Source: an uncultured virus (IMG/VR IMGVR_UViG_3300049433_000291) (lineage: Duplodnaviria > Heunggongvirae > Uroviricota > Caudoviricetes). From it: a stretch of DNA of 20,000 bases. Numbering within the stretch: the first letter of the stretch is position 1; each line of letters starts with the position of its first letter. Below, in pieces: positions 1-17,234 of this stretch. The notes under the pieces are model-generated. The model made no database searches. It was given only the letters and a program-made list of their open reading frames with translations, and was not told the origin of the DNA. The position numbers and the translations under genes are program-made. The stretch lies in IMG/VR virus record IMGVR_UViG_3300049433_000291; one strand, 5' to 3'.

Positions 1-2
1 TT

Positions 3-1616
3 TCGGGTGGCATCAGCGAGTTTTTTGGACAAGGTAATCCGTTTTTTGCCGTGTATTGTCCCTGCAAAGAAGGACAACCGAACAAGACAGAGCTTCTCCT
101 GCTTGATAAGTACTCCACACTCATTATTAGTGAACACATGATGAACCTGTCGATTGCCGACAGGTTAGTTGACTCATTGCGGATACAGTTCCCGAAAGAT
201 TTCTTTGGAAAAGAGGAGTGTACTAGCTTCGTCAACAAAACAGTGAGACTCTTTGATAGGGCGTCAATCGCGTCTTCGATTGAGCAGGTTAACTCCGTGG
301 TGGACCTCGAAACAAACCCGCTTGATTGGCTTCAAGAACTTTTCATAGCCGAGAATAGAAAAGTTAGCAATTATTTGACGCGAAACGCCTTGAGCGGCGG
401 TGGCGCGGTCTACGAAGGCGCCACCAGCGGTTACCACGACTTCATGCTACCTTTGATGAAGTTGGCGCAAGGATTCGCCAGTCTAAATTCCGCCTCAATA
501 TATGTGCTACTTGATGATGCGGGCAAGTTGACTAAAGAGCAGCAGAGCATCGTCAACACCTGGATTGCAAATAGAGATCAGTCAGCGATCTGTTTGAAAG
601 TATCAGCGCTCCGCGAAGAATACAAGACCTTCCTAACCCGTGACGGTGGGCTAATTGAGAAGCCACACGATTACTCCAAGGTTGATGTCGAAGAACTCTA
701 CACGCAATCCAAAGAAGATTACGCTCAAAAAGTAAAACTCATTGCAAATCGGCGTCTAGAATTATCAGAGGTCCCAACAAAGGACATTGAGCAGTTTCTA
801 CCGTCGGATCCGACCGAAGAAGCTCTGTTAGACGACTTCAGGAAGGAGACCGCAGCACAGTGGGAAATCGAGGGTCAGCCTGGGCGCCAGCGAGACTACG
901 TGACCAGATATGCGACCGCAAGACTATTTCAGCATTTAAGAGCCAGTAGACAGCGCAAGAGTTATGCGGGCTTCCAGAATATTGTGCATTTGTCCTCCGG
1001 CGTTGTGAGAGATTTTTTGGAGCCGTGTTATCTGATGTTCGATGAGTATGTCAGCGGAGATCGGGACCCGAGCACAGTTTCAGTCATCCCTCCCGCGTTT
1101 CAGAATGAGGTACTGTTCAGATATTCGGAAGAACTGATCTTAGGAAAGTTCGAGGATATTCGAAAGAACCTACCCCCGGAGAAATGGCCCCAGGTTGATG
1201 CGCTAAAAACGCTGTTGGAATCGCTCGGACGACTCTTTTACGAGAGGCTCCATGATCCGGAAGCGCGAGAGGCGCGGTTGTTCTCTTTTACTGTAAGAGG
1301 CCAGGTTACTGCTGACGTGGCAGATGTGCTCGACTTAGGTGTTCGTCATCGCTACTTTCAGCTTCGCACGTATAGCACGAAGGAAGGCGGCGGTCGGGAG
1401 AGCTGGTACATCCTCAACCGGTGGCTGTGCCCAGCTTACAAGCTCGACCCGACCGGCTTTGAGGGAAGGATCTCTCTTACACCAAGATTCATTCAGTTAG
1501 CCACCGAAGATCCCGATAGATTTGTCCGACTAAGACTGAAGCAAATGGACGATGACTCGCCGGACAAGGATAGACAGCCCACTTTGTTTTCGCTTGAAGA
1601 GGAGGCGGTGGGATGA
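3..1616 (+). CDS. P-loop ATPase, STAND/ORC-Cdc6-like (copy 1; 5' end truncated by the window edge)
   Basis: The frame is open from position 3 (SGGISEFFGQGNPFFAVYCP...), so the GTG at 51 is not the true start. Walker B-like YVLLDD is at ~501-518. It is a clear paralog of the 2913-5390 ATPase (DYVTRYATARLFQHL..YAGFQNIVHLSSGVVRDFLEPC vs DYVSKYGSARFFQTL..YAGLEYITMVSSGIYRQFLEIC). Walker A presumably lies upstream of the window. Confidence 0.85.
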   Translation, partial: SGGISEFFGQGNPFFAVYCPCKEGQPNKTELLLLDKYSTLIISEHMMNLSIADRLVDSLRIQFPKDFFGKEECTSFVNKTVRLFDRASIASSIEQVNSVVDLETNPLDWLQELFIAENRKVSNYLTRNALSGGGAVYEGATSGYHDFMLPLMKLAQGFASLNSASIYVLLDDAGKLTKEQQSIVNTWIANRDQSAICLKVSALREEYKTFLTRDGGLIEKPHDYSKVDVEELYTQSKEDYAQKVKLIANRRLELSEVPTKDIEQFLPSDPTEEALLDDFRKETAAQWEIEGQPGRQRDYVTRYATARLFQHLRASRQRKSYAGFQNIVHLSSGVVRDFLEPCYLMFDEYVSGDRDPSTVSVIPPAFQNEVLFRYSEELILGKFEDIRKNLPPEKWPQVDALKTLLESLGRLFYERLHDPEAREARLFSFTVRGQVTADVADVLDLGVRHRYFQLRTYSTKEGGGRESWYILNRWLCPAYKLDPTGFEGRISLTPRFIQLATEDPDRFVRLRLKQMDDDSPDKDRQPTLFSLEEEAVG

Positions 1617-2635
1617 GACATTGGTCCGTAGACGAACTGACGAACCACGGCGGTCTTCAGACGATACGAGAAGGAAGCGTCCCAGACGACATGTTTCTCG
1701 TTTCTGCCAGTTATGAAGCTAGAACCCTTACCGTGGCGCAGTCTCTCGCCGGTGACTATAGGGCCACACGAGGAGTTATATATGTAAACCAAGAGCTGTT
1801 GAGAGATCCTCAGAGCGATAGAGTTAGGCCACACCTTGATGAGCTAGTACATCTTTTGCTCTCTCACTGTGAGTCAATTGATCAAGCGGAGGGCAGTTGG
1901 CTTGATCCGAAGCGCCAACTCTTAGCCCTGCGAAGGGCATTAGTTACGTCCGCATACGAGCCGATGCAGGATGTTGCTGTGACCGTTGACACCACAACCT
2001 TCAATCGAGAATCGCTCTTGACTGCTATGGCCCTACTCCGAAATCATTTTCCCGCTTCGAAAATAAGGGTAGCCTATACGTCACCTCAAAAGCACGGGGA
2101 ATGGCTGAGCCAAGGTTACCGAAGTGTGCGAAATGTAATGAGCTTCGCTGGAATTCAGCAATCCAGCCGTCCCACACTTCTGGTTGTTTTATCTGGTTTT
2201 GAACCTGAGCGGACTTTGAAACTCATAGAGGAGCATGAGCCATCGAAAGTCTTACTCGGAATTGGGGATCCTCCGACAAATCAGCAATTCTTGCAAAGGA
2301 ATCTCGATGAACAAAAGCTAATACTGGCTAGACAGGAGGTTGAGAAGTTCAGTTTTCCAGCAAGTGACATGCTGCTCTGTCGCGACTCGTTGGAAACTCT
2401 TTTGCAAGCGTACTTGAAGAGTCACAACATCGCTTTAGCTCCAATGAGCACCAAACTTTCTACGCTTGCTGTCTTCCTGGTCGCCGAGGAGCATCCGGAG
2501 ATTCAGGTTACTTACTGTGTTCCTGGAGAATACAACACCGATAGCTATTCTTCGGGCGCGGACAGCGTATTCGTTGGTGAACTGCCACAACGCTCGGTAG
2601 AAGCGAAAGCTTTGGGCGTTCCGGATACTAGTTGA
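1613..2635 (+). CDS. ATPase-partner protein, predicted tandem Rossmann/CARF-like alpha/beta fold (copy 1)
   Basis: 340 aa with an ATGA overlap on the ATPase stop. Motifs FLVSASYEAR, VTVDTTTFNR, LVVLSGFEPER, IALAPMSTKL. Paralog of 5387-6364. The CDS is confident; the fold call is inference. Confidence 0.75.
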   Translation: MRHWSVDELTNHGGLQTIREGSVPDDMFLVSASYEARTLTVAQSLAGDYRATRGVIYVNQELLRDPQSDRVRPHLDELVHLLLSHCESIDQAEGSWLDPKRQLLALRRALVTSAYEPMQDVAVTVDTTTFNRESLLTAMALLRNHFPASKIRVAYTSPQKHGEWLSQGYRSVRNVMSFAGIQQSSRPTLLVVLSGFEPERTLKLIEEHEPSKVLLGIGDPPTNQQFLQRNLDEQKLILARQEVEKFSFPASDMLLCRDSLETLLQAYLKSHNIALAPMSTKLSTLAVFLVAEEHPEIQVTYCVPGEYNTDSYSSGADSVFVGELPQRSVEAKALGVPDTS

Positions 2636-2912
2636 ATTCAGCGTCTTAACAAGGATTGTACGTAGCGTTGTACTTCGACTCGATGAGCGCGAGCTGATAG
2701 GAGATCATTTACTAGTCCCTTGGTCTTGGTTCAAACCTGAGGGCCAACGGCGGCGACACATCCAAGAGAATTGTTAGCTCCTTCATCAGTAAGTGTCGGT
2801 CACGCACTCCATTTCGAGGCCCAATTCAACCTCTCGCAGCATTCAAGACAGTCGGGGGGGGCAATACACGACTGGGAACGGACCTACTTGCCCGATGAGG
2901 AGAAAACCTGGT

Positions 2913-5390
2913 ATGGCAATCCCATTCCTCACCGTTGCGATCGGTTATATGGCGGGTCTCGGCAAAGGCCTAGCCGTTAACTTGGCAGCAGCAGAGATCT
3001 ACGCAAGATTCAAGAAAGAGGACTTATTCTCATTGTTGGAGCGCTGCCTTGAGGATGCTATGAAAAACCGATCTCATATCCTCGATAGCGCAGCAGTCTT
3101 ACCAGGAGGATCTGTTCAAGGTGCGTACTTGGATAAAGAAAGGCTCCGGGATTACTTGGCAAAGAACCAGTCTATCGTCCCATCGCCCTCTGAATCAGGG
3201 GCGGAGAACCCGTGGCGAGAATATCTGAAACCCTTTGAGGAAATCATTGTTATTCCCACTTTCAAAGCCGAAAGCGAACGCCTAAATTCCATACAGGATG
3301 TGCTCGATGAAGCTTCGCGACTCTTTACCGCACGAGTTCCTTATCAGCAGCCTGCATTCCAAGAACTGTTGCTGAAATTCCAGGAGAAACACAGCGACGA
3401 ACACAAGGAAATCATCAAGAAGATCGATGCATTAAAACCAAGTGGTCCTTCTCTATTAATCGAAGTCGGGCATGATGAAAACCCAATCGCGGAGATTACA
3501 GTGAGCGCATGGGTCAATCCTTTTTCGATCGTCGCGGCTGACGATTTGGAGCTCACCAATCCAGAACACGTCAGACAGATTAGGAACCTTTTCATTGCCA
3601 GATACACTGACCTGCCAACAATCCAAAAACACTACAATACTATCCTCGAAGGCCAGCGCGGTACTGGGAAGACAATGATCATGAAGTATTTAGCCTTCGA
3701 AACTCAAATCCTAGAATGGGTTGAGAAGAAGAAACGGCAAGGTGCCGAATTCTTATCGTCCCCGGAGAATTTCATAGGTGTCTACTCAAAGCTCGGTCAG
3801 GGTGTTTTTGACAAGACTGACTTTGAGGCTATTAGCGACAAGACCAGGCGTGATCGCATCTTTGAACATCGACTCACGCTACAATTACTGTCTGACGTTC
3901 TCGATACGATGAAAGCCGTATACCAGCACTTCCCTCCTAGCACCGAAGACGTAAGAAGAATTAAGCAAGCACTGAACTCCCTTTTGAAAACCAACGGGAC
4001 CATAGATGTATGTCTGACGGCGAGTGATTTGATTAGAGCGGCTCAAGATCATATTTCCTTCATTTCAGTCCAAGAGGTAGACGAACACTTGGGTTCGGTG
4101 TCACCAGGTGGTGGAACCAGCTCGACAGACTTTAATCCAAGCCTGACACTGTCCGGACAACTGATACCCTTTCTTAAGTTGCTTCGACAATCGTGCAGTA
4201 CAAGCGTGCCATTCTTCCTCATGCTAGATGATTTTGATGTACTCGAGCCATTTCAGCAGGAGAGAGTTTTCAAAACGGCTTCGTCTAGGCAATTGGGCAC
4301 AGTCTGTTTCAAGTTCGGTGTCATGATTCATGGCAAAAAGGTTTTGCTATCGGGTGAGGGTAGAACGTTTCGCAATAGCGATGACTTTAACCGGATTGAC
4401 CTTGACTGGACCGAGGGAGGGCTCCATGAGAATTACCAGAAATCGCTTATTGATATTGCCCATGCTCGTTTGGAAGCTGCCGGTTCAGGTTGGAACGCCC
4501 AACTGTCATCGTTGCTCCCAGAATGGCAGCGCGGTAATGAGATATTTCTCGAGGTCAGAACAGTAATGGAGTCTGAATGGGAAACGGACGAAAAGCCAAC
4601 CGACTCCAAGAGTGATTACGTTTCAAAATATGGAAGCGCCAGATTCTTCCAGACGCTTAGAAAAAGAAAAATCAGGATGCGATATGCAGGCCTCGAATAC
4701 ATTACGATGGTCTCTTCGGGTATCTATCGTCAGTTTTTGGAAATCTGCAAGCTGATTTTTGATCGTGCTCACGATGAAGGCTGGATACCAGAAAACGGCG
4801 GAGTTCGCGCTGAGATTCAGGATATAGCAGTGCGCGAGTATTCTGAGGAAATGATCCAACAGTTTTCACGCACATCCGGGGACGCTCAATCTCTGCTTCA
4901 CGGCAATATTGAGGTCACTTCCTCACATATGACTACACTTATTGATAGCCTTTGTGACGTTTTCTATTCGCGGCTTCATACTCCGGTTGGTGTACTGGGG
5001 AGTGGCGAGCCTGAAATCATTTGCGTGGCAGTGCGTGATGATCTTGGTCGGTGCCCGGAGGCTGACATCCTATTAAAGATTGCTGTCAGAGAATCAATCC
5101 TTCATCGGTTTCAATACGCGCCAAAAACTTCGGGCGGTCCGCCTCTTCCGGCTTTCATGTTGAATAGAAGATTAGGTCCACGCCGGGACTTAAGCATCAG
5201 GCGTATGCAAGGGCGAATTGAGGTTGAAGCTGCTGACATCATTTTAGCGGCGAAAGACCGTAGAGAGTTTTTTCAGAAGATGCAGGGAAAAAAGGTGAAT
5301 GCTGACCGAACGAGCATAGACGATACATCGCAGCAGGTTGGCCTTCCGTTAGGAAAAGTAATGGGAGAGTCTGAACAGACTGAGCAATGA
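2913..5390 (+). CDS. P-loop ATPase, STAND/ORC-Cdc6-like, with a ~200-aa N-terminal helical extension (copy 2)
   Basis: Walker A GQRGTGKT at ~3651-3674, Walker B FFLMLDD at ~4212-4232, and an NPF motif before the P-loop. Start moved from the ORF-track GTG 2793 to the in-frame ATG 2913, which has GAGGAG at 2897-2902. Confidence 0.88.
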   Translation: MAIPFLTVAIGYMAGLGKGLAVNLAAAEIYARFKKEDLFSLLERCLEDAMKNRSHILDSAAVLPGGSVQGAYLDKERLRDYLAKNQSIVPSPSESGAENPWREYLKPFEEIIVIPTFKAESERLNSIQDVLDEASRLFTARVPYQQPAFQELLLKFQEKHSDEHKEIIKKIDALKPSGPSLLIEVGHDENPIAEITVSAWVNPFSIVAADDLELTNPEHVRQIRNLFIARYTDLPTIQKHYNTILEGQRGTGKTMIMKYLAFETQILEWVEKKKRQGAEFLSSPENFIGVYSKLGQGVFDKTDFEAISDKTRRDRIFEHRLTLQLLSDVLDTMKAVYQHFPPSTEDVRRIKQALNSLLKTNGTIDVCLTASDLIRAAQDHISFISVQEVDEHLGSVSPGGGTSSTDFNPSLTLSGQLIPFLKLLRQSCSTSVPFFLMLDDFDVLEPFQQERVFKTASSRQLGTVCFKFGVMIHGKKVLLSGEGRTFRNSDDFNRIDLDWTEGGLHENYQKSLIDIAHARLEAAGSGWNAQLSSLLPEWQRGNEIFLEVRTVMESEWETDEKPTDSKSDYVSKYGSARFFQTLRKRKIRMRYAGLEYITMVSSGIYRQFLEICKLIFDRAHDEGWIPENGGVRAEIQDIAVREYSEEMIQQFSRTSGDAQSLLHGNIEVTSSHMTTLIDSLCDVFYSRLHTPVGVLGSGEPEIICVAVRDDLGRCPEADILLKIAVRESILHRFQYAPKTSGGPPLPAFMLNRRLGPRRDLSIRRMQGRIEVEAADIILAAKDRREFFQKMQGKKVNADRTSIDDTSQQVGLPLGKVMGESEQTEQ

Positions 5391-6364
5391 TGGAGTCAAT
5401 AAGCGAAGTGCTTGGTCAAATTGAGCCGACCGCTGGTGATAAGGATTCAGTCCTCATAACGTGCGCTAGCTTTGAGGAGCGTTCAACTGCGGTGGCGCAA
5501 CGACTCGCTCAGAATTATGCCGCGGAACATACCTTCATTTTTCGGTCAACCGAATATGGGGACTTGGGGGACTCACCTGAATACTTTCAATTTATCGAAA
5601 GCAAAATGACTAGCATTAGTAAGAACAAGCCTAGTGTGATCAAATTCTCCATTGATCACTCGATCCCTTCCATGGCCCAGTTTGAAGGCTCCTACCGGGA
5701 ACTCAAAGCGACCTCGTTGGTTAGCAACGTCTCAGTGGACGTTACAACATTTCCACGGCAGGAATTGTTAATGCTGCTGCGCGTTTTGGACAGCCAATCC
5801 GATCTTGCCTCCACGCGGCTCTTCTACGGAGAGCCGCTTAGGTATTGCACCGAGGACGCGGGCGGATGGCTCACTAGAGGAGTCAAATCTGTGCGCCCCG
5901 TTCCTGGCTTCGGTGGAGTTCAGCCCCCGAACAAGAAGAAGAATCTGCTGATAATGTTTCTGGGCCATGAGGATGAGCGAGCTGCAATTACATGGAAGCG
6001 ACATCAGCCGAGAAAAACTATTGCTATTGTCCCGGATCCGAACTATCGGAAGGAGATGAACGGCATAGTTGAAAGAACGCATCAGCCGCTGTTTACGAAA
6101 CTGAGCACAACGGAATTCTATCCGGCAGTTCCCGCCCGAGGGATAGTGGAGTCCGAGAATGCGGTGTTGAGGATATGGGAGGAGCATCATGAATCCTACT
6201 ACATAGTTGTGGCTCCTCTCGGGACTAAGTTACAGACGTTGGGTATCTATAGAGCGGTGCGGCGAAGACCGGATATTCAGATCACGTATGCGATACCTTC
6301 AATCTATAACTACCGGAATTATTCTGTTGGGGTAAACCGCATTTGGGAGATCCATTGGAACTAA
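5387..6364 (+). CDS. ATPase-partner protein, predicted tandem Rossmann/CARF-like alpha/beta fold (copy 2)
   Basis: 325 aa with an ATGA overlap on the ATPase stop. Motifs LITCASFEER, VSVDVTTFPR, LIMFLGHEDER, IVVAPLGTKL, PDIQITY..P..YN...YS.G, all shared with 1613-2635. Confidence 0.75.
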   Translation: MMESISEVLGQIEPTAGDKDSVLITCASFEERSTAVAQRLAQNYAAEHTFIFRSTEYGDLGDSPEYFQFIESKMTSISKNKPSVIKFSIDHSIPSMAQFEGSYRELKATSLVSNVSVDVTTFPRQELLMLLRVLDSQSDLASTRLFYGEPLRYCTEDAGGWLTRGVKSVRPVPGFGGVQPPNKKKNLLIMFLGHEDERAAITWKRHQPRKTIAIVPDPNYRKEMNGIVERTHQPLFTKLSTTEFYPAVPARGIVESENAVLRIWEEHHESYYIVVAPLGTKLQTLGIYRAVRRRPDIQITYAIPSIYNYRNYSVGVNRIWEIHWN

Positions 6365-6440
6365 GAACGACTCTTTTCAACGACTGTTTAGAGTCAACCG
6401 TTCTAATCGGATTACGAAAGCTAAACTGTTCGGGACAAGT

Positions 6441-8231
6441 ATGTCGAACGTAACTTATGTCACATCCTTACTGTCGCGGCAATATAAGGATCCGTCCCTT
6501 AATAACCATCGTGATCCACTAGATGAAATAGTATTTATTCTCCTTTCCGAAAAGACCGACGAAGCTAAGTACACAACCGCCTTCAGAAATTTGAAGGCTC
6601 GCTTTCCTCGCTGGACAGGAGTTCTCAGCGCGCCCGTGCGCGAGATCAAGACGGCGATCGAGACCGCCGGAATGGGTAACCGACGCGCAAATCTCCTTCG
6701 TCGACTATTTAAAGCCATTGTTGAAAGGTTTGGCGCTCTGGATCTTTCAATGCTTGCAGGAATGTCTTTGGAAGAAGCTGAGGCCGAACTGATTCAACTG
6801 CCAGGGATCGGACGCAAGGCCGCGCGATGTGTATTGCTGTATTGCTTCGATTTTCCTGCCTTACCTGTTGACGTGCACACTTATAGATTAGCTATTAGGT
6901 TAGGCATCCTTTCACGTCGGGTTTCTTATGAACAATCCCACGAAGCGTTGCCGCGCCTCGTTCCATCTCATTTGCGTCGGCGTTTCCACGTAAATGCAGT
7001 AGCTCATGGACGCGCCCGGTGCTTTGCCCGCAAGCCCGACTGTAATGGCTGTCCGCTGGCAGAACACTGCTCTTATCCGGAGGCGGTTAGACCTTTGCGG
7101 ATCGTCGCGAGGCCTGAGCCACTTGCCATAGATCTTTTCGCTGGTGGTGGCGGATTAAGCCTAGGGTTTGAAAAGGCGGGTTTCCGCATCGTGCAATCGG
7201 TCGAGAGTAATTCAAGAGCCGCAGCTACATATGCACACAATAATCCTGACGTGGATCTTATTGAAAGAGATATAAGGCAGATCAATCCGCGCACCTGTTT
7301 AGCACGCCTCGGACTTAGGCCTGGCGACCTGACTGCCTTAATCGGGGGGATTCCTTGTCAGGGATTTTCAGAATCAAACCGCCGCACGCGGAATTCAGCC
7401 AACCCTAATAACCATCTTTATAAGCGATTTATTCGGTTCTTGGATGTGCTTCGGCCAGCATGGTTCGTGATAGAGAATGTCGCCGGCCTGCGAACGATGG
7501 AGCGCGGCTTGATTCTGCAGCGAATTATTCGCGAATGCAAAGCACTTGGCTATGAGGTTAATTGGCGGGAACTCAATGCCGCCGATTTTGGAGTCCCTCA
7601 GGTTCGTCGCCGCATATTTATCATTGGAAATCGGTTTGGCTTGCCGATTCCGTTTCCGGAGGCGACGCATGGTCCAGGATGTCAACTGCGAGTAACGGTG
7701 CGTAAGGCGCTTGGCGATTTGCCCGTTCTTAAAAATGGTGCTTCCAAAGATTATCGGCCGTACGGAAAAACTGGCCGAGGACTGACTAAGTACCAGCGCA
7801 TGATGCGGGCTTCGAGGAACGGGACCGGCGAAGTTCAGGGGAATCTGGTTACACGAAGCACAGACGTAATTATCAAGCGTTATCGGCACATACGGGCTGG
7901 GGGGAATTGGGAGGACATACCAACTGAACTGATGATCAATTATGAGGATCCTTCGAGATGTCACACTGGTATTTATCATCGATTAGAGTGGGACAAACCA
8001 GCCAAAGTTATTGGAAATTTTCGAAAGAACATGCTTATACACCCTCAACAGCATCGAGGCTTGTCGGTAAGAGAGGCCGCACGTCTTCAATCGTTTCCGG
8101 ACGACTATGAGTTCCTGGACTCGATCGGATTCCAGCAACAACAGGTGGCCGATGCCGTACCGCCGCTCTTGGCGGAAGCGGTTGCCAAGCACATCATACG
8201 AGCTGATCGAACAATGGGCCCCAAACGATGA
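6441..8231 (+). CDS. Fusion of an HhH-GPD (endonuclease III-like, [4Fe-4S]) DNA glycosylase and a DNA (cytosine-5)-methyltransferase
   Basis: N-terminal ~212 aa: HhH LPGIGRKAARCVL, catalytic Asp in PVDVH, FeS motif CFARKPDCNGCPLAEHC (C-x6-C-x2-C-x5-C). C-terminal part: MTase motif I DLFAGGGG, IV GGIPCQGFS, VI ENV, VIII PQVRRRIF, IX REAARLQSFPD, X ADAVPP. Single uninterrupted 596-aa frame. Confidence 0.93.
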   Translation: MSNVTYVTSLLSRQYKDPSLNNHRDPLDEIVFILLSEKTDEAKYTTAFRNLKARFPRWTGVLSAPVREIKTAIETAGMGNRRANLLRRLFKAIVERFGALDLSMLAGMSLEEAEAELIQLPGIGRKAARCVLLYCFDFPALPVDVHTYRLAIRLGILSRRVSYEQSHEALPRLVPSHLRRRFHVNAVAHGRARCFARKPDCNGCPLAEHCSYPEAVRPLRIVARPEPLAIDLFAGGGGLSLGFEKAGFRIVQSVESNSRAAATYAHNNPDVDLIERDIRQINPRTCLARLGLRPGDLTALIGGIPCQGFSESNRRTRNSANPNNHLYKRFIRFLDVLRPAWFVIENVAGLRTMERGLILQRIIRECKALGYEVNWRELNAADFGVPQVRRRIFIIGNRFGLPIPFPEATHGPGCQLRVTVRKALGDLPVLKNGASKDYRPYGKTGRGLTKYQRMMRASRNGTGEVQGNLVTRSTDVIIKRYRHIRAGGNWEDIPTELMINYEDPSRCHTGIYHRLEWDKPAKVIGNFRKNMLIHPQQHRGLSVREAARLQSFPDDYEFLDSIGFQQQQVADAVPPLLAEAVAKHIIRADRTMGPKR

Positions 8232-9692: not shown

Positions 9693-10568
9693 TTACGCGG
9701 CGGCTTGACGCTTTCGACGTGTCTTAGGTGTGCCGTTTTCAGGTGCGACGAGTGTTAGCGGGGAAGCAGTTGGTTCTTGCTCTACACGGTTTGCTTGTAC
9801 CTTCAGGCTTGCTTGCAGTGCGGTCATAATGTCGATTACGGCAGCTGGCTTTCGTACTTCGCCGGTGGTGGTGATCGTTTCTCCGGCGACTTTGGCATCG
9901 AGCATTTCTTTCAAGGCAGCGTGAAAGTGGTCCGTGGTGTCGATTTGGTCAAACGTGGTGACCATCTGCTCGACGAGCGTTGTGGCCAATTGCAGTTCGT
10001 TGTCTTGCGGCGTGGCTTGACTGGAAATTCCCGGAACATCGACCACACTGCGTACCTCGTGGCGGTAGTGCAGCTTTTGGATCATGAGGCCATCGCCGTT
10101 GGGGGAAATGGTAATCAGGTCTTCACGCTCCCGTAAAATTACCTTGCCCACTCCAATCCTTCCGCTTCGCTTCATAACTTCGCGTAGCAGGGCATAGGAT
10201 CGTTCGGCTGCCTGGCCGTTGGGGGCCGCGAAGTAAGAGGCGTCGAAGTAGGTGGTCGGAATTTCTTCCGGTTTGATGAAGCCGATGATTTCGATTGCTT
10301 CACTTGATTCTGGCGTGATCTTGGCGATCTCTTCCGGAGCGACTAGCACGTATTTTTCTTTTTCGTGTTGGTAGCCTTTGACGATCTCGTCGTTGGTTAC
10401 GGTGACGTCGCATTTCTTGCATTGTTTCTTCTGGCCGATGGGTCCCAGGCAGGCGCCAGCGTGGAGTTGGTTGAAGGAGATCTTCTCGCTGGTTTCAATG
10501 GCGTTGAAAACCTTAATCGGGATCGAGACGAGGGAAAACGTTATGCTGCCTTTCCAGATGCTGCGCAT
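9693..10568 (-). CDS. ku: Ku DNA end-binding protein (prokaryotic NHEJ Ku)
   Basis: Canonical N-terminus MRSIWKGSITFSLVSIPIK, IVKGY, YFDASYF, YALLREVM, VIDIMTALQASL and a short basic tail. The RBS AGGAG lies upstream (ctcct at ~10575-10579). Confidence 0.95.
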   Translation of the reverse strand: MRSIWKGSITFSLVSIPIKVFNAIETSEKISFNQLHAGACLGPIGQKKQCKKCDVTVTNDEIVKGYQHEKEKYVLVAPEEIAKITPESSEAIEIIGFIKPEEIPTTYFDASYFAAPNGQAAERSYALLREVMKRSGRIGVGKVILREREDLITISPNGDGLMIQKLHYRHEVRSVVDVPGISSQATPQDNELQLATTLVEQMVTTFDQIDTTDHFHAALKEMLDAKVAGETITTTGEVRKPAAVIDIMTALQASLKVQANRVEQEPTASPLTLVAPENGTPKTRRKRQAAA

Positions 10569-10602
10569 GGTGTGCTCCTAATTTAGTTAGTTAATTTGTT
10601 GC

Positions 10603-11403
10603 TCACTGCCCTTTGTATTTCAATTGCGAGATCAGGCAATGTTCCGGTTGGAGGTCGTCGCGGATGGCAACCATCCGAGGCTGGTAAACGTGATTTGAAT
10701 CGCGAAACGCGTGTAGATAGCGAACGTCTATTACCATTCCGTCCTTAACGCGAAAGTGCTTGCTGCGAATTTTGACGTTGCCACACTCGATTAGCTGGCC
10801 CTTGTCATTGAAGAGACCCAATGCAACGGAATCTTTTTCGTTCTTTTTAGTGAGTACAAACGAGCTGACTACCGTGAACTTGTGTTTGAATTGGTCAGGC
10901 TGTCGATCGGTGCGATAGGGAGAGTCAATTTTCTTCAGTACGATGCCTTCGAGGTTACGCGCATGAACTTCTTGCAATAGCGCGATTTTGCCTGCCTGTT
11001 CAAATTCAGTCCTTGCAATCTGAATCGATCTCGCTCTGGCAGCCTGGAGTGTTGCCAGTAGTTGGGTGTTTCGGTCAAGGAATTTCCAGGGGCGAATGTC
11101 TGTGCCGTTGATTTCTAGGATGTCGAATGCGTGGAGAGTTTTGGTTTCCCGGATCCACTCGCCATCGAACATGATGGGAGCGATGGGCTCGAATTGTCTT
11201 GCTTCGGCGATGATGTTTGGAGAGACGCTGCAAGTGAGGCCTTCTCGGTTGTGTGCCGTAACGGAAGAACGCTCGATGTGCAGCATGATGCGCTTGCCGT
11301 CGAATTTTTGCTGGACCGCATAGTTCGGATCGAGAAGTCTGGCGGCGGCTTCATTCCCGTCGTCGATGGCGGTTAGAAGTTGACAGGCTGCTTTGTGCTT
11401 CAC
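10603..11403 (-). CDS. Minimal ATP-dependent DNA ligase (adenylation domain plus OB domain)
   Basis: Nucleotidyltransferase motifs I QKFDG, III FDGE, IIIa AFDIL, IV EGIVLK, V FKHK, followed by a C-terminal OB-like region with QPR. 266 aa, with no polymerase or phosphoesterase domains. Confidence 0.88.
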   Translation of the reverse strand: MKHKAACQLLTAIDDGNEAAARLLDPNYAVQQKFDGKRIMLHIERSSVTAHNREGLTCSVSPNIIAEARQFEPIAPIMFDGEWIRETKTLHAFDILEINGTDIRPWKFLDRNTQLLATLQAARARSIQIARTEFEQAGKIALLQEVHARNLEGIVLKKIDSPYRTDRQPDQFKHKFTVVSSFVLTKKNEKDSVALGLFNDKGQLIECGNVKIRSKHFRVKDGMVIDVRYLHAFRDSNHVYQPRMVAIRDDLQPEHCLISQLKYKGQ

Positions 11404-11576: not shown

Positions 11577-12131
11577 TTAGCTCTGCGGACTGTAGGGATG
11601 ATTGTTTGCGCAGTAAATAGTAGTCTTGGCGGGTTCGCAGAGTTCGAGAATGTCTTCCTCACTGGCTGGTTGCGGGCCGCCGTCGTAGTCAATGATGCGG
11701 CCGTCGCTGTTTACTTCGACTGCGTAGAGGTTGATTTTGACGGAGGCGTGGAGTTCGGCGCCGCAATCCGGGCAGGTGCGCGCGGGGCCGGATGTTTTGG
11801 TAGAGCTGCTCTTGGATTGTCTGGAAAGTTCTGAGGCAAAGACTGGAGTTCCGTTTTCAATGGTGCAGTCTACCTGTTCGTCTTCTTCTTTCTCCCAGGA
11901 GTCACAGGTATAAGGACCTTCGCGGTCATCGCCACTTTCGTAGTTAAGATTGTCGAGCTTGTTTTTTTCAAGGAGTTCGGAGACGATTTCTTCTGCGGAG
12001 GAGGAGTCGGTAGTGCTGACTGCGACATCGGCGTATTCGGAGAGATCGCGAGCGACACGGACTACATAGGTTTTCTCCTCGTTTTCGTCCGGGGTGCTAG
12101 CTGAAGCTTTGTTATCTTTGGCTCGTTTCAT
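11577..12131 (-). CDS. Hypothetical acidic protein (DpnD/PcfM-like N-terminal motif and a C-terminal Zn-ribbon)
   Basis: KTYVVRVARDLSEYADVAVSTTDSSSAEEIV resembles the small MGE DpnD/PcfM-type motif. CPDC...C..NH near the C-terminus. Confidence 0.65.
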   Translation of the reverse strand: MKRAKDNKASASTPDENEEKTYVVRVARDLSEYADVAVSTTDSSSAEEIVSELLEKNKLDNLNYESGDDREGPYTCDSWEKEEDEQVDCTIENGTPVFASELSRQSKSSSTKTSGPARTCPDCGAELHASVKINLYAVEVNSDGRIIDYDGGPQPASEEDILELCEPAKTTIYCANNHPYSPQS

Positions 12132-12227
12132 GGTATGGGGGTAGTTTGGGTCATGCGCGTTGCTGCTGTTTGCAGGGCTCTTTATTTGCAGTTCATTGAT
12201 TGCCGCTGTTGTTTGACCATATTTGAT

Positions 12228-12473
12228 GGCGGGAAATGGGTCGTGCTCGGCTTAGTCTGAAGGCGGCGCATTTGGGCGCTTAATAGTACTTACGGTTGAG
12301 TGAGCTAAAGCGACTGTCGAACGTCGTAAACTAAAATCCTTGGTCCAGGGAGGCCACCATGTACTCGGACTGCCAACCTTTCTGAAGGGCCCCCGCAAGG
12401 GTGGGGAATGCGTCGCTTTTGGCTTAGGGCCGGAGGCGGCCCATTTCGGCGTTTAGAAGTAAGGGCGGTTGAG
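12228..12473. repeat. Degenerate direct repeat, ~73 bp x2 (12228-12300 and 12400-12473)
   Basis: Cores ggcttag-tctgaaggcggcgcatttgggcgcttaatagtacttacggttgag (12249-12300) and ggcttagggccggaggcggcccatttcggcgtttagaagtaagggcggttgag (12421-12473) match at 40/53 by hand. Similarity extends about 20 bp further left. Confidence 0.8.
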
Positions 12474-13193
12474 CCAGTAGCCTTCGACGGAGCGCCAGGT
12501 CCCGGCGGCGCGTTCGACTAATTGGATGGCTGCTTTCATCGCCTTCATCCTGGTCCATTCTCGCTTGATGAGCATGGCGGTAATTGTTTCGAGGGTGGCG
12601 CTTTCGTTTTGTTCCTCGAGGCAATTTTCGGTAAATAGCAAGTTAACGAATTCGGTGGTAAATCCTTGTTCTCGTTTGCGGCTCTTGTCTCCGAGAATAC
12701 CTTGCACGGCAGTGAAGATATCGGCACGCGCGGCCGCGCGCTGATTATCAAGCTCTGCGCTTAGCCGTCGCTGTCTTTCTTCTTCGCTTGGTACGGTGGG
12801 AATCTCTGCGTGAGTTCTAACTAATGTGGCTATCTCCGCCGCTTCAAGGCGCAGCAGTTCCTGTCCCATGGGAGTTGTGCAGATAACGTGTGGTGCGGGA
12901 TCGGTGTTGCAATGGATGTGAAGGTGCGCGTTGCTGGCCCAGCAATTACCCAAGGCCAGGCTGAGTTCTTCATCAGAGGCGCCGACTACAAGTTCTTTTT
13001 CCCAGCGACGGTGCTTTACGAATCCCTGGATGACCTGGGTGGCAAGTTCGTCGCGGGTTATCTCGATGTTGAGGGATTCGCTGTTGGCGTCGGTGCCTGT
13101 AGGCTCGGTTGTTGGGCTCGGGGCTTTAGGTTCATCGACAATAGTGGTCGTTGGTGTGAAGAGGGAAACTTGATGATGGTCAGGGCGTTTCAT
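12453..13193 (-). CDS. Hypothetical protein (~246 aa)
   Basis: The start is probably ATG 13193 (MKRPDHHQVSLF), which makes an ATGA overlap with the stop of 13190-13420. The ORF-track extension to 13316 overlaps that better-supported gene. Confidence 0.7.
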   Translation of the reverse strand: MKRPDHHQVSLFTPTTTIVDEPKAPSPTTEPTGTDANSESLNIEITRDELATQVIQGFVKHRRWEKELVVGASDEELSLALGNCWASNAHLHIHCNTDPAPHVICTTPMGQELLRLEAAEIATLVRTHAEIPTVPSEEERQRRLSAELDNQRAAARADIFTAVQGILGDKSRKREQGFTTEFVNLLFTENCLEEQNESATLETITAMLIKREWTRMKAMKAAIQLVERAAGTWRSVEGYWLNRPYF

Positions 13194-13420
13194 TTCGTGG
13201 AAGTTCGATTCGCGCGTTCTTGTTCTATTGCGTCTTCCGAACACGAGGCGTGAACATATCCTTCGTGGTTGTAAAAGCGACGATCGGAGCCGATTGGCTT
13301 TTCGCAGTAGCGGCAAACGGTGTGTGCGATAGTTCGCGATCCTGCGCAGTCAGTGTGGTGACATGGTTCGGCGCATGGTCCGTATTTTGTGCCGGGTGCT
13401 GAGAGTACGCCTGCTGCCAT
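13190..13420 (-). CDS. Small Cys/His-rich putative Zn-binding protein (76 aa)
   Basis: Strong RBS GAGGAG upstream. C-x3-C-x4-C, C-x2-C and H-x2-C ligand pattern. Coupled to the downstream gene. Confidence 0.72.
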   Translation of the reverse strand: MAAGVLSAPGTKYGPCAEPCHHTDCAGSRTIAHTVCRYCEKPIGSDRRFYNHEGYVHASCSEDAIEQERANRTSTK

Positions 13421-13440
13421 TGTAGTTAAGCTCCTCTTGC

Positions 13441-13947
13441 TCAGTTTGTGTTTGGTGCTTCAAGCTGATGGGCAGGTTCGTGTCCGGAGTCCTGGGGGGA
13501 AAGTATGGAGGTGCTTTGCTCTTCAGATTCGCCGGCCGCTCCGTTCGTTTGGAAAGTATCGGTTGTGTATTCGAAGCGGGCGACAGCCTGGCAGAGGGCA
13601 GCGTAAGCGGCGACCGGATCCGTCGAGGCTATAGTGATCGTCACGTTATTGAATTGAACTTCCTCGATCGGGAGTGTAATTTCCGATAGATGCGGCAGGG
13701 CGGCCCTTGCGATCGGAGTTTGGACCAGATCGTCAATTTTCCAGTCGACGTGTCCTTCCTGGCTGACGGTACAGAGAAGCCGCGCATCTTCCGGAGGTTG
13801 CTCGCCTTCGATCAGCGTGGCCCAGATCATTTGGTCAAAGAGCTTCCCCTTGGTTTCATAAACGAATAGGAAGGCGCGTTCGCGGGTCGCGCGTTGGATG
13901 GCTTCGTTGACGACTGTTTGGCGGATTTCGGTTGTGGTGACGGTCAT
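13441..13947 (-). CDS. Hypothetical protein (168 aa)
   Basis: ATG with AAGGA upstream. Tightly packed and co-oriented with its neighbours. Confidence 0.7.
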   Translation of the reverse strand: MTVTTTEIRQTVVNEAIQRATRERAFLFVYETKGKLFDQMIWATLIEGEQPPEDARLLCTVSQEGHVDWKIDDLVQTPIARAALPHLSEITLPIEEVQFNNVTITIASTDPVAAYAALCQAVARFEYTTDTFQTNGAAGESEEQSTSILSPQDSGHEPAHQLEAPNTN

Positions 13948-13961
13948 GAGTGTTCCTTAAG

Positions 13962-14540
13962 CTATTCGCCGGCGAGTAGTGTGATCTGGTTTTCGTCAAT
14001 TGGGCGTGTGAGATTTTTGGTTGCCGGCGCCGGAACTGCGGCCGGTATTCTAACAGGCTGGCCGATGATGCTGATCGGATTGCGTTTGCGCGGACGGAAC
14101 GCGTAGAGCTGGCGGTGAACTTCGCGAACGGTAAGGGTGGTTACTGCTGATCCGCCGATTATGGTCTCAGCGAGGTATTCAAGCTTGCGTCCTCGTTTGA
14201 AGGCCTTTTCTAGTATTGCTGGTTCTCCGGGTGTCCAACCGGCTTCAATGAGCGCATCGTGACGGCGATAGCATTGGGCGTTGTAGACGAGTAAGGAGAG
14301 CATTGAATTCTTTTCGGTGATGGAGCCGACTTGGAATTGTTGCTCGAACCAGGCTTGAAATTGCGCGTTGTATTGAAAGCCTGCTATTCGCTCGCGTTCA
14401 TTTAGCAATGAGCATAGCCAGGTGCTTTTGATCCGGAACTTGTTTAGGTTGTCAGGCAAGGAGCTTTCTAGTTGGCCAAGCAGTGCTAGAGTTTGTTCCT
14501 GGTCAAGGATCAAAAGTGGTGTAGGCTGGAAGTCGCTCAT
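13962..14540 (-). CDS. Hypothetical protein (192 aa)
   Basis: ATG start and short intergenic gaps in the co-oriented cluster. Confidence 0.7.
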   Translation of the reverse strand: MSDFQPTPLLILDQEQTLALLGQLESSLPDNLNKFRIKSTWLCSLLNERERIAGFQYNAQFQAWFEQQFQVGSITEKNSMLSLLVYNAQCYRRHDALIEAGWTPGEPAILEKAFKRGRKLEYLAETIIGGSAVTTLTVREVHRQLYAFRPRKRNPISIIGQPVRIPAAVPAPATKNLTRPIDENQITLLAGE

Positions 14541-14572
14541 GGTGATTGTTTAGCTACGAACGAGCTTGTTCT

Positions 14573-15205
14573 TCATGCTGCCTTTCTTTCCAACTCGAGG
14601 CAGCAATTAGCGCAGCGGATACGGTTTGGATTTAGTGGGCTTGGCTCAACTTCCTGGTGTGCGGTGTCGATTCCGCATTCTTCCTGCATTTCATCGAGCG
14701 CCTTGATGCAAGTGCCGAGCAGAAGTTCGAGATAGCGTTTACGGTCGTCCGCCACGTGTGGGTGCTCCGTAAGTCCGAATAGTGGACCAGCAGAGTCCAT
14801 TAGCGCCCACTCTGCTTGCCGGTGGAGATGCTCGGCTCTCAACGTTGGAGAGTGGCCTTTTGGAAGATCGGTATAACCATGGGCACGATGGGCGGCATCA
14901 CACGCGTCGTAGTACGCGCGGAGTTTGGCCTTAATCTCATCGGACTCGTCCTCGCCGTGAAGTAAGCAAAAGTCAACGTCGTCAGGCGAAGGGATAGGCT
15001 TACCGGCCAACTTCTCGCCGCGACGGGTATCGAGGCGTTCTACGGAGTTACCCTCGTAGACAAAATTGAAACTGTCGAATATCGGTTTGATGTAGGCGGC
15101 TTCGTAGATTTTGATTGTATCGGCTGCCGCTTGGGTTTCGCAGACAGCCAGGGCCAGTCTCGCGTTATCTCTGCTCCACTTTTTGAATTCATCAAGGGTT
15201 GGCAT
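14573..15205 (-). CDS. Hypothetical protein (~210 aa)
   Basis: The start is probably ATG 15205 (MPTLDEFKKW) after a purine-rich leader, rather than TTG 15256. C-terminal CANC. Confidence 0.7.
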   Translation of the reverse strand: MPTLDEFKKWSRDNARLALAVCETQAAADTIKIYEAAYIKPIFDSFNFVYEGNSVERLDTRRGEKLAGKPIPSPDDVDFCLLHGEDESDEIKAKLRAYYDACDAAHRAHGYTDLPKGHSPTLRAEHLHRQAEWALMDSAGPLFGLTEHPHVADDRKRYLELLLGTCIKALDEMQEECGIDTAHQEVEPSPLNPNRIRCANCCLELERKAA

Positions 15206-15373
15206 GGTCTCTCTCTTTTTTTCTTCCTTTATCGGTTGTAACAAAGGGGTTCCCAACTAAAGCTACGTCCGAATTCACAGCTCACAGCAATAATCCGACT
15301 CGATCTCCTGCAATAACTGTTCAAAGTATTGTGGTCGGTGCAATTTTACTTTTTCTAAATTCATGCGCGGTCG

Positions 15374-16255
15374 TCACACACGAGGATGGTGCATATCATA
15401 GGACCGTCGCAGATATCTGGTCGTTACGTGCGTATAGACTTGCGTCGTAGAAATATTGCTGTGGCCCAGAAGGGCTTGCACGTCTTTTATCTCCGCGCCG
15501 TTTTGCAGTAGGTGAGTAGCAAACGTGTGGCGCAGAGTGTGCGGCGAAATTTCTTTGATGCCGGCTATCAAGCCATAGTGCTTGATGATGGCCCAGAGGA
15601 ACTGGCGGGTAAGTGGCTCGCCGCGGTTGAGAAATAGATGAAGGTTAATGGCGCGGGGCAGGTCTTTTGTGGCGATGTAGTTTTCGAGCGCCTGCGCTGC
15701 GCTTTTGCCGATCGGGATGGTTCGTTCCTTCCTGCCTTTGCCGAAGCACGTGACGATACCGGTGCGAAGGTCAATGTTCTTTTGGCGGAGTGAAACGAGT
15801 TCAGAGGCGCGCAGGCCGGCCGCGTACATCAACTCGAGGATGGCTCGATCGCGAATCCCTTCTTTGGTTGAGAGGTCCGGCGCTGAGAGCAGTTTCTGTG
15901 TTTCTAGCTCAGTCAGGAAGGTTGGCAGATATGAAACTGGTGGAGGAGTGTCAAGGTCCTCGGTCGGAATGTTGTCGATGTATCCGTCAATGGCGAGGAA
16001 AAGAAAGAAGCCGCGGACGGCGCTGGCTATTCGGCGAACAGTTGCGGGCGATAGATGTGCGCGAGATAGCTCCGCGATAAACGTTCTGAGATCGCGTGGG
16101 CGAAGATCTTGTATTTGTTGCCCGGCTTGGTATGCGTAGTGAGTAAGCCGAGCAAGATCTTTGGCATAATTCATTATCGTGTTCTCAGAAAGGCCCTTTT
16201 CAATTCTGAGATAGCGCAGAAATTGTTTGGTGAGCGGAGGGCCTTGGGCGCGCAT
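15374..16255 (-). CDS. xerD: XerD-like tyrosine recombinase
   Basis: N-terminal SAM-like domain (FLRYLRIEKGLSENT..NY..DL). Catalytic motifs RDRAILELMYAAGLRASEL, GKGRKER, HTLRHTFATHLL, LLGHSNISTTQVY, with all R-K-H-R-H-Y residues present. The context suggests an MGE-borne rather than a housekeeping copy. Confidence 0.88.
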   Translation of the reverse strand: MRAQGPPLTKQFLRYLRIEKGLSENTIMNYAKDLARLTHYAYQAGQQIQDLRPRDLRTFIAELSRAHLSPATVRRIASAVRGFFLFLAIDGYIDNIPTEDLDTPPPVSYLPTFLTELETQKLLSAPDLSTKEGIRDRAILELMYAAGLRASELVSLRQKNIDLRTGIVTCFGKGRKERTIPIGKSAAQALENYIATKDLPRAINLHLFLNRGEPLTRQFLWAIIKHYGLIAGIKEISPHTLRHTFATHLLQNGAEIKDVQALLGHSNISTTQVYTHVTTRYLRRSYDMHHPRV

Positions 16256-16469: not shown

Positions 16470-17234
16470 TTAAGAGCGCGACGTGCGGCGGCTGGGTTGC
16501 GGGTTTGTTTGTGGATGTTCGCGAGCCGGTGCGAGTACGAGGGTTGGCCTGGGACAGGGCAAAGGTAGGGCGGTGGCGGAGCGCTCTTGCGGGGCTTTAC
16601 TGCCGAGGCGAATGAATGCGGCCTGTTGCGAGCCGCAAGCGTAGATAGCGGCTTCCATGGCCGAGCCGGCGACGCGGCTGAGGTAATCATGGAGCTGCTC
16701 GCTTGGTTCGATGGTCAGGATTTCATCGGGGAGAATGATCGTGTTTTGCCGGATCGTCCGGTTGTTGCCGTTGATGATAGCGAAGGGCGCGATGGTTGCG
16801 GTTGAGGTGTCCTCGTCCGGAGTGGCGTGACTGAGGGCGAGCATGGGTGTCATGGATGTTGCCTCTGAAGTGGTTTGTTGATCGGCAGCTTGCGGATTGT
16901 CGACGATAGGGTCAAGGGCAAAAAGGTTGAGTTGGGGTGGGGCTGTGTACGGGCGAGCCCTTCGTTGCGCCTGCAGGGCGAGCATTGCCAAGTAGTCGAG
17001 ATCGAGTGTCTGGTCGGGCTTGATTATGAGACGCCATTGGCGAAAGTTGCGGAGCTGGTGCGTGAGTTCGAGCAGCCAGGCGGGGTATTTACTTTGAGTA
17101 CCAGGCTCGGTGTGTGCGGCTTCGCTGGAATCGGTGTCCGCGAGCGAAGACACCAGAGCGGTGTGGTTGTCGGCATCGGTAATATGCGCAGTAACCGCAG
17201 TGGCCATGTTTGTAGTTTGGTTGCTGCTTGTCAT
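16470..17234 (-). CDS. Hypothetical protein with a degenerate Fis/NtrC-type HTH-like segment
   Basis: The frame is open to TTG 17336; ATG 17234 is a plausible start. The segment LHDYLSRVAGSAMEAAIYACGSQQAAFIRLG resembles the Fis-type HTH entry. Much of the rest is low-complexity T/A/P sequence. Confidence 0.55.
   Translation of the reverse strand: MTSSNQTTNMATAVTAHITDADNHTALVSSLADTDSSEAAHTEPGTQSKYPAWLLELTHQLRNFRQWRLIIKPDQTLDLDYLAMLALQAQRRARPYTAPPQLNLFALDPIVDNPQAADQQTTSEATSMTPMLALSHATPDEDTSTATIAPFAIINGNNRTIRQNTIILPDEILTIEPSEQLHDYLSRVAGSAMEAAIYACGSQQAAFIRLGSKAPQERSATALPLPCPRPTLVLAPAREHPQTNPQPSRRTSRS

Follow-up and report, generated by a model that had tools for sequence, protein, structure and literature searches.

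How could a gene cluster act that holds a DNA methylase with no restriction nuclease, and nucleotide sensors of the CARF fold with no cyclase? The question is raised by a window of 20,000 nucleotides from an uncultured virus of the Caudoviricetes (IMG/VR record IMGVR_UViG_3300049433_000291; the window is the whole stretch of DNA that was analysed), in which positions 1-8231 of the + strand are occupied by five large co-oriented open reading frames (ORFs) in the order A-B-A′-B′-C, i.e., two pairs made of an ATPase (A, A′) and a tandem-CARF protein (B, B′), followed by a single glycosylase-methylase fusion (C). We conclude with moderate confidence, the working model developed below being part of this estimate, that two modules of a conserved, horizontally mobile and methylation-linked conflict cassette, probably directed against phages or plasmids, are combined in this locus. 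Since its methylase comes without a restriction nuclease and its CARF sensor without a cyclase, such a cassette cannot work like either textbook system. Its copies occur in many bacterial phyla and in at least one archaeon, also on plasmids, and RefSeq lists its three core proteins only as 'hypothetical protein'. An earlier note on this DNA had described the five co-oriented genes, their A-B-A′-B′-C layout, the ATGA overlaps and the 76-bp gap, and all of these were recovered where it had placed them; its naming of the products as ATPases, CARF-like partners and a glycosylase-methylase fusion was likewise borne out by Pfam, by PADLOC and by the fold match of B.

Linkage of the ATPase-CARF pairs with DNA methylases

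Loci were retrieved with the CARF proteins alone as bait, so that their neighbours are unbiased. The B-family alignment gave 15 loci in a species-representative genome collection, and the B′-family alignment gave 25 loci in a metagenome collection, corresponding to 20 distinct ones (L033-35 are near-identical, as are L038-41). All 15 genome loci contained a C5 methylase next to A-B, 40–78% identical to the methylase domain of C; in L015, only a 29-residue remnant of B stands beside the fusion gene. Among the distinct metagenome loci, the methylase is present in 13 of 20, counting L029, whose contig ends within the fused glycosylase domain, and six of the other seven (L043-46, L049 and L050) lie on contigs of at most 3.8 kb or ending near B′. 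Homologs of both ATPase-partner pairs accompany a homologous C5 methylase, often with a glycosylase, and the association that the earlier note had proposed from this locus recurs elsewhere. Over the 40 loci, the only recurrent clusters were ATPase, CARF, methylase, HD-CE, ThyX and Vsr, and the CARF gene was immediately downstream of the ATPase gene in all loci with both genes. The position of the methylase gene varies between two places, behind B and ahead of the first cassette gene, which argues that the linkage is not that of one frozen operon.

These data bear on the simplest alternative, namely that the ATPase-CARF pairs are a defence module and that C stands beside them by chance, either as a solitary methylase without any link to them or as what is left of a type II restriction-modification (R-M) system. 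In its favour, C is 76 bp away from B′ without overlap and is scored by PADLOC simply as a type II methylase. However, a homologous methylase is adjacent in 15/15 genome and 13/20 metagenome loci that are independent, come from ~8 phyla and show variable gene positions, and the identities of 35–78% among methylase homologs beside A/B or A′/B′ pairs elsewhere argue against one recently spread element; we therefore regard a chance neighbourhood as very improbable. The source taxa (Acidobacteriota, Chloroflexota, Syntrophales, 'delta proteobacterium', Armatimonadota, Planctomycetota, Latescibacterota and the archaeon Haloarcula) amount to about eight phyla, and one copy of the cassette lies on a conjugative Agrobacterium plasmid. 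In addition, a B′-like match of any kind occurred in only five of 401 sampled Acidobacteriota genomes, none of them a close relative of B′: two were B-type proteins at 27% identity (one being the L001 cassette) and the others weaker, distant matches. No homolog of B was found in the phage collection. The distribution of the cassette is patchy and mobile, as is typical of conflict systems.

Our results also indicate which parts of the cassette are fixed. The invariant core is the ATPase with its tandem CARF, and both the effector and the DNA-modification partner are exchangeable. Among the more distant members, L055 is made of HD-CE, A, B and a C5 methylase, L053 of an N6_N4 methylase, an ATPase, a B-like gene and ThyX, L052 of a B-like gene and an N6_N4 methylase (disrupted by an insertion sequence element), and L051 of a kinase::ATPase fusion, a B-like gene and DruA in the methylase position. 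Note that in the distant relatives L051 (5135-10011) and L054 (2954-7612), a protein kinase is fused to the ORC-CDC6-like ATPase, and that SIR2 and ParA-like genes precede the ATPase in L054.

The closest relative, L001 (from a Pyrinomonadaceae metagenome-assembled genome), has the order HD-CE - A - B - C with a B-C spacer of 62 bp; its A (a protein of 611 aa), B and C are 84%, 76% and 72–78% identical to those of the window, respectively. In the window this spacer is split, its left part following B (to ~2653) and its right part preceding C (from ~6412), and between the two parts lies an A′-B′ block of ~3.76 kb (~2654-6411) with its own 259-bp leader, a configuration consistent with the insertion of a second module into the B-C spacer. 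Paralogy was evident both between A and A′ (548 aligned columns, 26% identity, E 5e-36) and between B and B′ (27% identity, E 1e-33); because the pairs are only 26–27% identical, A-B-A′-B′ represents two old paralogous modules and not a recent duplication. For both B and B′ there is a database protein at 88% identity, and because the contig statistics of the two agree, a relative with the same two-module array may exist. Another tandem array was seen in L044, a whole contig of 2950 bp in which a B′-type CARF gene is directly followed by HD-CE and an A-type ATPase, i.e., in the order opposite to that of the window.

Putative sensors, switch ATPases and effectors, and the methylase fusion

Both CARF proteins were recognised by PADLOC as CARF6 (B with E 1e-73, PDLC01917; B′ with E 1e-43), and neither matched a Pfam or NCBIfam family; B′ belongs to its own family of 46 database proteins. 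The AlphaFold model of B (36 homologs; predicted local distance difference test (pLDDT) 93, predicted template-modelling (TM) score 0.92) displays two Rossmann-like lobes, and in an exhaustive structural comparison its first match was Can1 (6sce; Z 14.1, root-mean-square deviation 3.5, 228 residues over 24-306), followed by Can2, Csm6, Cam1, Card1 and Csa3, and then by the SAVED domains of Cap5, Cap4 and CalpL (Z 8-10). All of the top 31 rows of this comparison were CARF or SAVED proteins. Foldseek matches of the same model in the PDB (KCC transporters, KaiC) were discarded as poor global alignments with TM scores of 0.2-0.3. In the CARF signature given by PMC4012209, a six-stranded Rossmann-like core has a polar residue following its strand 1 and the motif [DN]x[ST]xxx[RK] following its strand 4. 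This signature is present in lobe 1 of B, with D126-T-T-T-F-N-R132 after strand 4 and S33/E35/R37 after strand 1, and lobe 2 carries T280-K281 after its strand 4. The CARF motif D126-x-T-x-x-x-R132 as well as T280 and K281 were invariant in 66/66 B/B′ sequences; E35 and R37 were kept in 65 of the 66, and E197, R200, Q298, Y307 and N308 in 65–66 of them, S33 being nearly invariant in the 36-sequence alignment of B. B′ has the same invariant pocket residues as B. Both proteins are thus predicted to be stand-alone tandem-CARF sensors without an output domain. They resemble the Can1 and SAVED receptors of type III CRISPR and of the cyclic-oligonucleotide-based system CBASS in having two CARF-like lobes in one chain, with what would be a single pseudo-dimeric nucleotide pocket, and differ from them in that no nuclease or other output domain is attached and no conserved Cas10 or CD-NTase lies nearby.

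The ATPases matched the Pfam family PF24389 (ORC-CDC6-like) with E 5e-69 for A and 1e-59 for A′ (residues 253-809 when numbered from the GTG start), over the full model and above its 27-bit cut-off; A′ is 60% identical to its L026 counterpart. The earlier note had called these proteins 'STAND-like' as well as 'ORC-Cdc6-like', and it is the second label that fits better: the ORC-CDC6-like match covers the full length, the NACHT/nSTAND matches on relatives were all sub-threshold, and A and A′ are probably of the ORC/Cdc6 type and not repeat-bearing STAND proteins (NACHT/NB-ARC-type NTPases with sensor repeats at the C-terminus). A profile search with A′ against PDB sequences gave nothing significant (best E 0.39), and A′ weakly matched the PADLOC model CARF_STK_AAA. 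That model corresponds to fused proteins (Zn-ribbon, Ser-Thr kinase, AAA+ with an Arg in the P-loop, CARF and winged helix-turn-helix) which PMC4012209 described in 2014. Like the window, these proteins (CARF6--CARF_STK_AAA in PADLOC) link an AAA+ ATPase with an Arg in its P-loop to a CARF domain; in the window, however, ATPase and CARF are separate and no kinase is present, and L051 and L054 have kinase::ATPase fusions with separate B-like genes. Because the fused kinase-AAA-CARF proteins share the Arg-containing P-loop with A′, the ATPase and the CARF protein may well act as a unit.

As for the effectors, an HD-CE gene (PF24391, E 1e-15 to 1e-19; ~340 aa) lies directly upstream of A, usually overlapping it, in 12/12 B-type loci with room for it; 'CE' stands for 'conflict effector', a term attributed to Nicastro et al. 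2023 in bioRxiv 10.64898/2026.01.15.699771. The window is cut exactly at the position where this gene would be, no HD-CE was found elsewhere in the window, and the HD-CE gene of module 1 is therefore expected just upstream. Given its presence directly upstream of A in those 12 relatives, the window probably does not contain the whole system. The multi-subunit system proposed in the earlier note is thus a real multi-gene, methylation-linked one, of which the window shows a probably incomplete copy (HD-CE being expected upstream of A, and A′ having its own N-domain). B′-type loci have no HD-CE next to A′ (with the exception of L044, where an HD-CE plus A module follows B′), and the domain fused to the N-terminus of A′ varies among them, being TIR (L028, L033), a calcineurin-like metallophosphatase (L031, L032, L039) or a helical domain of ~215 aa (L026, L043 and the window). 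This last domain is rare (seven clusters among 1.84 billion representatives, four of which are fused to PF24389), matched neither Pfam nor PADLOC and has no recognised fold; its model is of low confidence (pLDDT 62), and a language-model atlas gave a weak lead to the NACHT N-terminal helical domain NNH2 (score 0.89). Since it occupies the same position as the TIR and metallophosphatase domains of relatives, it is presumed to be an effector or adaptor. In L026 (5562-7424) and L028 (10178-12058), an HD-domain protein of ~620 aa (Pfam HD E 1e-5 in L026) follows the glycosylase-methylase and may be a separate effector of those modules; no counterpart follows C in the window.

C combines two enzymes. 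Residues 1-225 form a glycosylase of the EndoIII family, which retains the catalytic Lys within GIGRKAA, the Asp within PVDVH and an iron-sulfur motif of the form C-x6-C-x2-C-x5-C, and which matches HhH-GPD and EndIII_4Fe-2S in Pfam and a DR2438-type glycosylase in NCBIfam (E 4e-32); among solved structures, Deinococcus EndoIII-1 comes closest (E about 1e-28), compared to E 1e-11 for Mig (1kea). Residues 226-596 form a complete C5 methylase (PF00145, E 4e-63) with the motifs FAGGGG, PCQ, ENV, QVRRR and ADAVPP. The role of the glycosylase was addressed with a tally of 29 distinct methylase loci (15 genome, 13 metagenome and the window). An EndoIII-type glycosylase occurs in 13 of these, either fused to the methylase (L001, L003, L008, L015, L026, L028, L029 and the window), or as a separate adjacent gene (L027, L030, L033 and L047), or as a remnant (L005), and Vsr occurs in seven (L004, L010, L013, L031, the L038 group, L042 and L048; a Pfam scan of three representatives, from L004, L039 and L042, gave E 1e-18 to 1e-31). 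No locus has both, and nine have neither, two of them being cut at the methylase by the contig end. Mainly because of this complementary distribution, the glycosylase is probably a substitute for Vsr, i.e., a companion for the repair of T:G mismatches left by deaminated 5-methylcytosine (5mC), and not a defence arm; the 'base-removal' function that the earlier note had considered is less well suited to a domain that never occurs together with Vsr. Such a C5 methylase travelling with a putatively T:G-capable enzyme recalls Dcm-Vsr and Mig (annotated in PDB 1kea as 'possible G-T mismatches repair enzyme'), but the glycosylase of the window is fused to its methylase, keeps the EndoIII catalytic Lys (bifunctional-type site) and is closer to EndoIII-1 than to Mig. 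Besides Vsr, the fusion would represent a second way of limiting the mutations that come with 5mC. In L005 (Dehalococcoidia; 10818-11120 and 12324-13110), the glycosylase is reduced to a 53-residue remnant before the methylase and thyX is split into two ORFs, i.e., the accessory genes have decayed, and HD-CE, A, B and the methylase are intact.

Known systems, candidate triggers and mode of action

No named system was assigned by PADLOC, Pfam or NCBIfam to A, A′, B or B′ beyond PF24389 and CARF6. The PADLOC matches to DruM and DrmMII came only from the generic C5 domain of C, and A, A′ and the HD-CE proteins of relatives had no significant PADLOC match (best mad8, E 0.0096). None of the signature non-methylase components of bacteriophage exclusion (BREX), DISARM, Druantia and MADS (PglZ/BrxC, DrmA/B, DruA-E and Mad, respectively) was matched by PADLOC. 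The earlier note's statements that no restriction endonuclease is visible and that the combination is not a named system both hold: with regard to type II R-M, no restriction endonuclease or nuclease family was found in the window, the only conserved hydrolase of relatives being HD-CE, and no named system in PADLOC covers the locus. Its term 'undescribed' goes too far, since the parts are catalogued as PF24389 and PF24391 in Pfam and as at least 13 CARF6 models in PADLOC (PDLC01910-01925), in addition to the fused relative known since 2014 (PMC4012209). No paper on this cassette was found in our literature search, the reach of which did not extend to Makarova et al. 2020 and Nicastro et al. 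2023. The cassette is therefore computationally catalogued, yet unnamed. With the catalogued effector/ORC-CDC6-like/CARF6/methylase cassettes, of which L001 (HD-CE - A - B - C) is the canonical form, the window shares the ATPase family, the translationally coupled tandem-CARF protein and the methylase neighbour. What is new here is the array of two modules, 26–27% identical, before a single methylase, the rare helical N-domain and the EndoIII-type glycosylase-methylase fusion.

No Cas10 or CD-NTase cyclase was found among the recurrent clusters of the 40 loci, and no cyclase domain in the 13 other ORFs of the window; with no conserved cyclase in the neighbourhood, the ligand of the CARF proteins is probably not a cyclic oligonucleotide made by the cassette. 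In our working model, the cassette would combine a DNA methylase and an effector with a switch ATPase of the ORC/Cdc6 type and a sensor made of tandem CARF domains. C would write 5mC on the host chromosome, and its glycosylase domain would take T out of the T:G mismatches arising from 5mC deamination, a task that would fall to Vsr where the cassette carries that gene instead. The trigger would be a methylome-derived nucleotide, for instance 5-methyl-dCMP, or a short piece of DNA containing 5mC, set free once the methylated chromosome of the host is broken down by an invader. B and B′ would take up this nucleotide-type ligand where their two CARF lobes meet and thereby control their partner ATPases; these would switch or oligomerise and so activate the effector, either HD-CE acting in trans or the N-domain fused to the ATPase. 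Nucleotides or NAD would then be depleted, or growth arrested in another way, and the infection would be aborted. A methylome-derived nucleotide is our favoured trigger, tentatively and with clearly less than half of the weight, because (i) the nucleotide sensor has no cyclase, (ii) the methylase has no restriction nuclease, (iii) the effectors are of a small-molecule type and (iv) one methylase serves two modules. Indeed, one methylase with two modules of different outputs fits a shared diffusible signal.

A precedent for this logic is provided by bioRxiv 10.64898/2026.01.15.699771, which reports a Calcineurin-CE system activated by m6-dAMP (the N6-methylated nucleotide) from Dam-methylated host DNA during phage-induced chromosome degradation. 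As presented there, PUA-Cal-HAD resembles our cassette in that it depends on methylation, lacks a restriction nuclease and combines a sensor of modified nucleotides with a 'conflict effector' phosphoesterase that depletes deoxynucleoside triphosphates, the host methylation being a barcode turned into a danger signal. It differs by its PUA-like sensor instead of CARF, by the absence of an ORC/Cdc6 ATPase and by its use of host Dam instead of a C5 methylase of the cassette, and the analogy thus concerns the working logic and not family membership. Pushing it further, 5mC would be purely a 'barcode', the tandem-CARFs would be receptors for a non-cyclic methylome-derived nucleotide, the two modules would listen to the same signal, and the CARF6 subfamilies would each be tuned to the mark of their own methylase (5mC, m6A or m4C). 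As a whole we consider this extension unlikely; if true, it would provide the first CARF-family receptor for a modified nucleotide derived from DNA damage, and a self-contained immune system that writes a mark and senses its release.

Several points weigh against the working model. The methylase class varies (N6_N4 in L052 and L053, DruA in L051), so that no one ligand, 5-methyl-dCMP for instance, can apply throughout the family, and the model would require a CARF pocket that changes together with the methylase; the most conserved pocket residues, being identical in B and B′, are uninformative on ligand identity. In L036, no methylase was detected although there is room for it, and A′ is truncated. 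The effector of module 1 is outside the window, the N-domain of A′ is without a recognised fold, and thyX is not accounted for by the model. Moreover, ORC/Cdc6-type ATPases are usually DNA binders according to PMC12839542 and bioRxiv 10.64898/2026.10.19.760177, which favours direct sensing of DNA.

This last point is central to the main alternative, an R-M-like explanation, in which the methylase marks self at a specific motif, the ORC/Cdc6-like ATPase together with B scans DNA and fires the effector at unmethylated sites of the invader, as has been proposed for BREX, and the CARF ligand is merely a secondary regulator. The methylase is indeed an obligate neighbour, the same two sources place BrxC of BREX in the DNA-binding ORC/Cdc6 clade, and a varying methylase class is easily accommodated if only methylated versus unmethylated DNA matters. 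BREX also shares with the window, according to PMC12839542, a methylase and an ORC/Cdc6-clade ATPase without a classical restriction enzyme; in contrast, the window lacks PglZ, BrxA, BrxB and BrxL, has a C5 instead of an N6A methylase and includes a CARF partner. However, no DNA endonuclease is part of the cassette, and HD-CE, TIR and metallophosphatase are typical of abortive outputs that target small molecules. Two ATPases that are 26% identical would both have to read the motif of one methylase, and the invariant CARF nucleotide pocket would be left without a ligand source. We consider this explanation possible but rather unlikely.

Another explanation, for which the recurrence of ThyX (flavin-dependent thymidylate synthase, PF02511) is one argument, is that of a guard or addiction system, in which the modules would monitor the methylase or the metabolism of methyl donors and kill or arrest the cell when methylation fails, for example through phage factors that degrade S-adenosylmethionine or inhibit methylases, or through loss of the mobile element. 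A ThyX gene is present in 16 of 36 distinct loci (L003, L005, L008, L010-L013, L028, L029, L032-L036, L045, L046, L049 and L050), and also in L053 (the version with an N6_N4 methylase), in L054 and at the plasmid locus L057 (6665-7603); the catalytic motif RHRxxS...SxRY is intact in the two copies inspected, ThyX is part of a 560-aa protein in L028, and none was found in the window. Such recurring genes of one-carbon and nucleotide metabolism beside the cassette, its mobility (plasmid copy, patchy spread) and its toxic-type effectors would all suit a guard; but nothing resembling an antitoxin was found, a nucleotide is the kind of ligand suggested by the CARF fold, and there is no sign that the methylase protein itself is sensed, so that we judge a guard function improbable. 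For the methylome-derived trigger as for its competitors, the window offers a natural experiment, with two divergent sensor/ATPase modules and different outputs around one methylase, and the trigger, once worked out, would reveal the link between DNA methylation and an abortive immunity aimed at nucleotides.

Gene coordinates, start sites and the rest of the window

The coordinates of the cassette genes and of their domains are collected in Table 1.

Table 1. Position and nature of the cassette features in the window
Feature	Positions	Strand	Description
A	3-1616	+	ATPase of module 1 (P-loop, ORC-CDC6-like), cut at its 5′ end by the window edge; Walker B-like IYVLLDD present
B	1613-2635	+	Predicted tandem-CARF sensor (two Rossmann-like lobes), no effector domain; PADLOC CARF6
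Spacer before A′	2654-2912	+	Left portion of the ~3.76-kb block interrupting the L001-type B-C spacer
A′, N-terminal domain	2913-3560	+	~215 aa, mostly helical, first helix hydrophobic; position of TIR/metallophosphatase in relatives
A′, ATPase body	3561-5390	+	ORC-CDC6-like; P-loop EGQRGTGKT (Arg within the loop); Walker B FFLMLDDFD
B′	5387-6364	+	Second predicted tandem-CARF protein; PADLOC CARF6
C, N-terminal domain	6441-7115	+	EndoIII-family HhH-GPD glycosylase
C, C-terminal domain	7116-8231	+	C5 cytosine DNA methyltransferase

Both ATPase genes overlap their CARF gene by an ATGA, at 1613-1616 for A/B (ggATGAga) and at 5387-5390 for A′/B′ (caATGAtg), and the 76-bp gap extends from the stop of B′ at 6364 to the start of C at 6441. 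When compared to the full-length 611-aa homolog of L001, A lacks ~74 N-terminal residues, including the P-loop GSRGAGKS, which fall outside the window; from this comparison, the incomplete A is an effect of the window edge and not a broken gene. The longest ORF of A′ begins with GTG at 2793, while an ATG at 2913 has a GAGGAG ribosome-binding site 10 nt upstream. For all seven homolog clusters of the N-domain, the alignment begins no later than residue 13 of the homolog and residue 17 of the query, the latter numbered from Met 2913, and in five of them it starts at query residues 1-3. Because of the upstream GAGGAG and of these alignments beginning near that Met, the true start of A′ is likely the ATG at 2913 and not the GTG at 2793. 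In a public protein collection, B and B′ are present only as shorter calls of 223 and 230 aa, which cover 66% and 71% of the length, respectively, at 100% identity; homologs of B and B′ align from residue 1 of the ATGA-overlap starts, and the public gene calls probably begin too late. No promoter-like match was obtained in a scan of the spacer 2654-2912, and promoter and terminator scans of the window gave nothing informative.

The 13 downstream ORFs had no PADLOC match and are not conserved beside the cassette, and they were therefore excluded from the system. A tRNA scan found no tRNA gene in the window. On the − strand, positions 9693-11403 encode a bacterial non-homologous end-joining pair, made of Ku (PF02735, E 3e-43) and an ATP-dependent DNA ligase-like protein (PF01068, E 1e-13), which is convergent with the methylase gene and is not conserved beside the cassette in other loci. 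Further downstream, an XerC/D-like tyrosine recombinase (PF00589, E 7e-50; 15374-16255, − strand) lies among minus-strand ORFs without a Pfam or PADLOC family (11577-15256 and 16470-17336). Between 8.5 and 17.5 kb, the + strand displays strong skews, with an AT skew down to −0.32 and a GC skew up to +0.29, and the recombinase region may be an integrated element.

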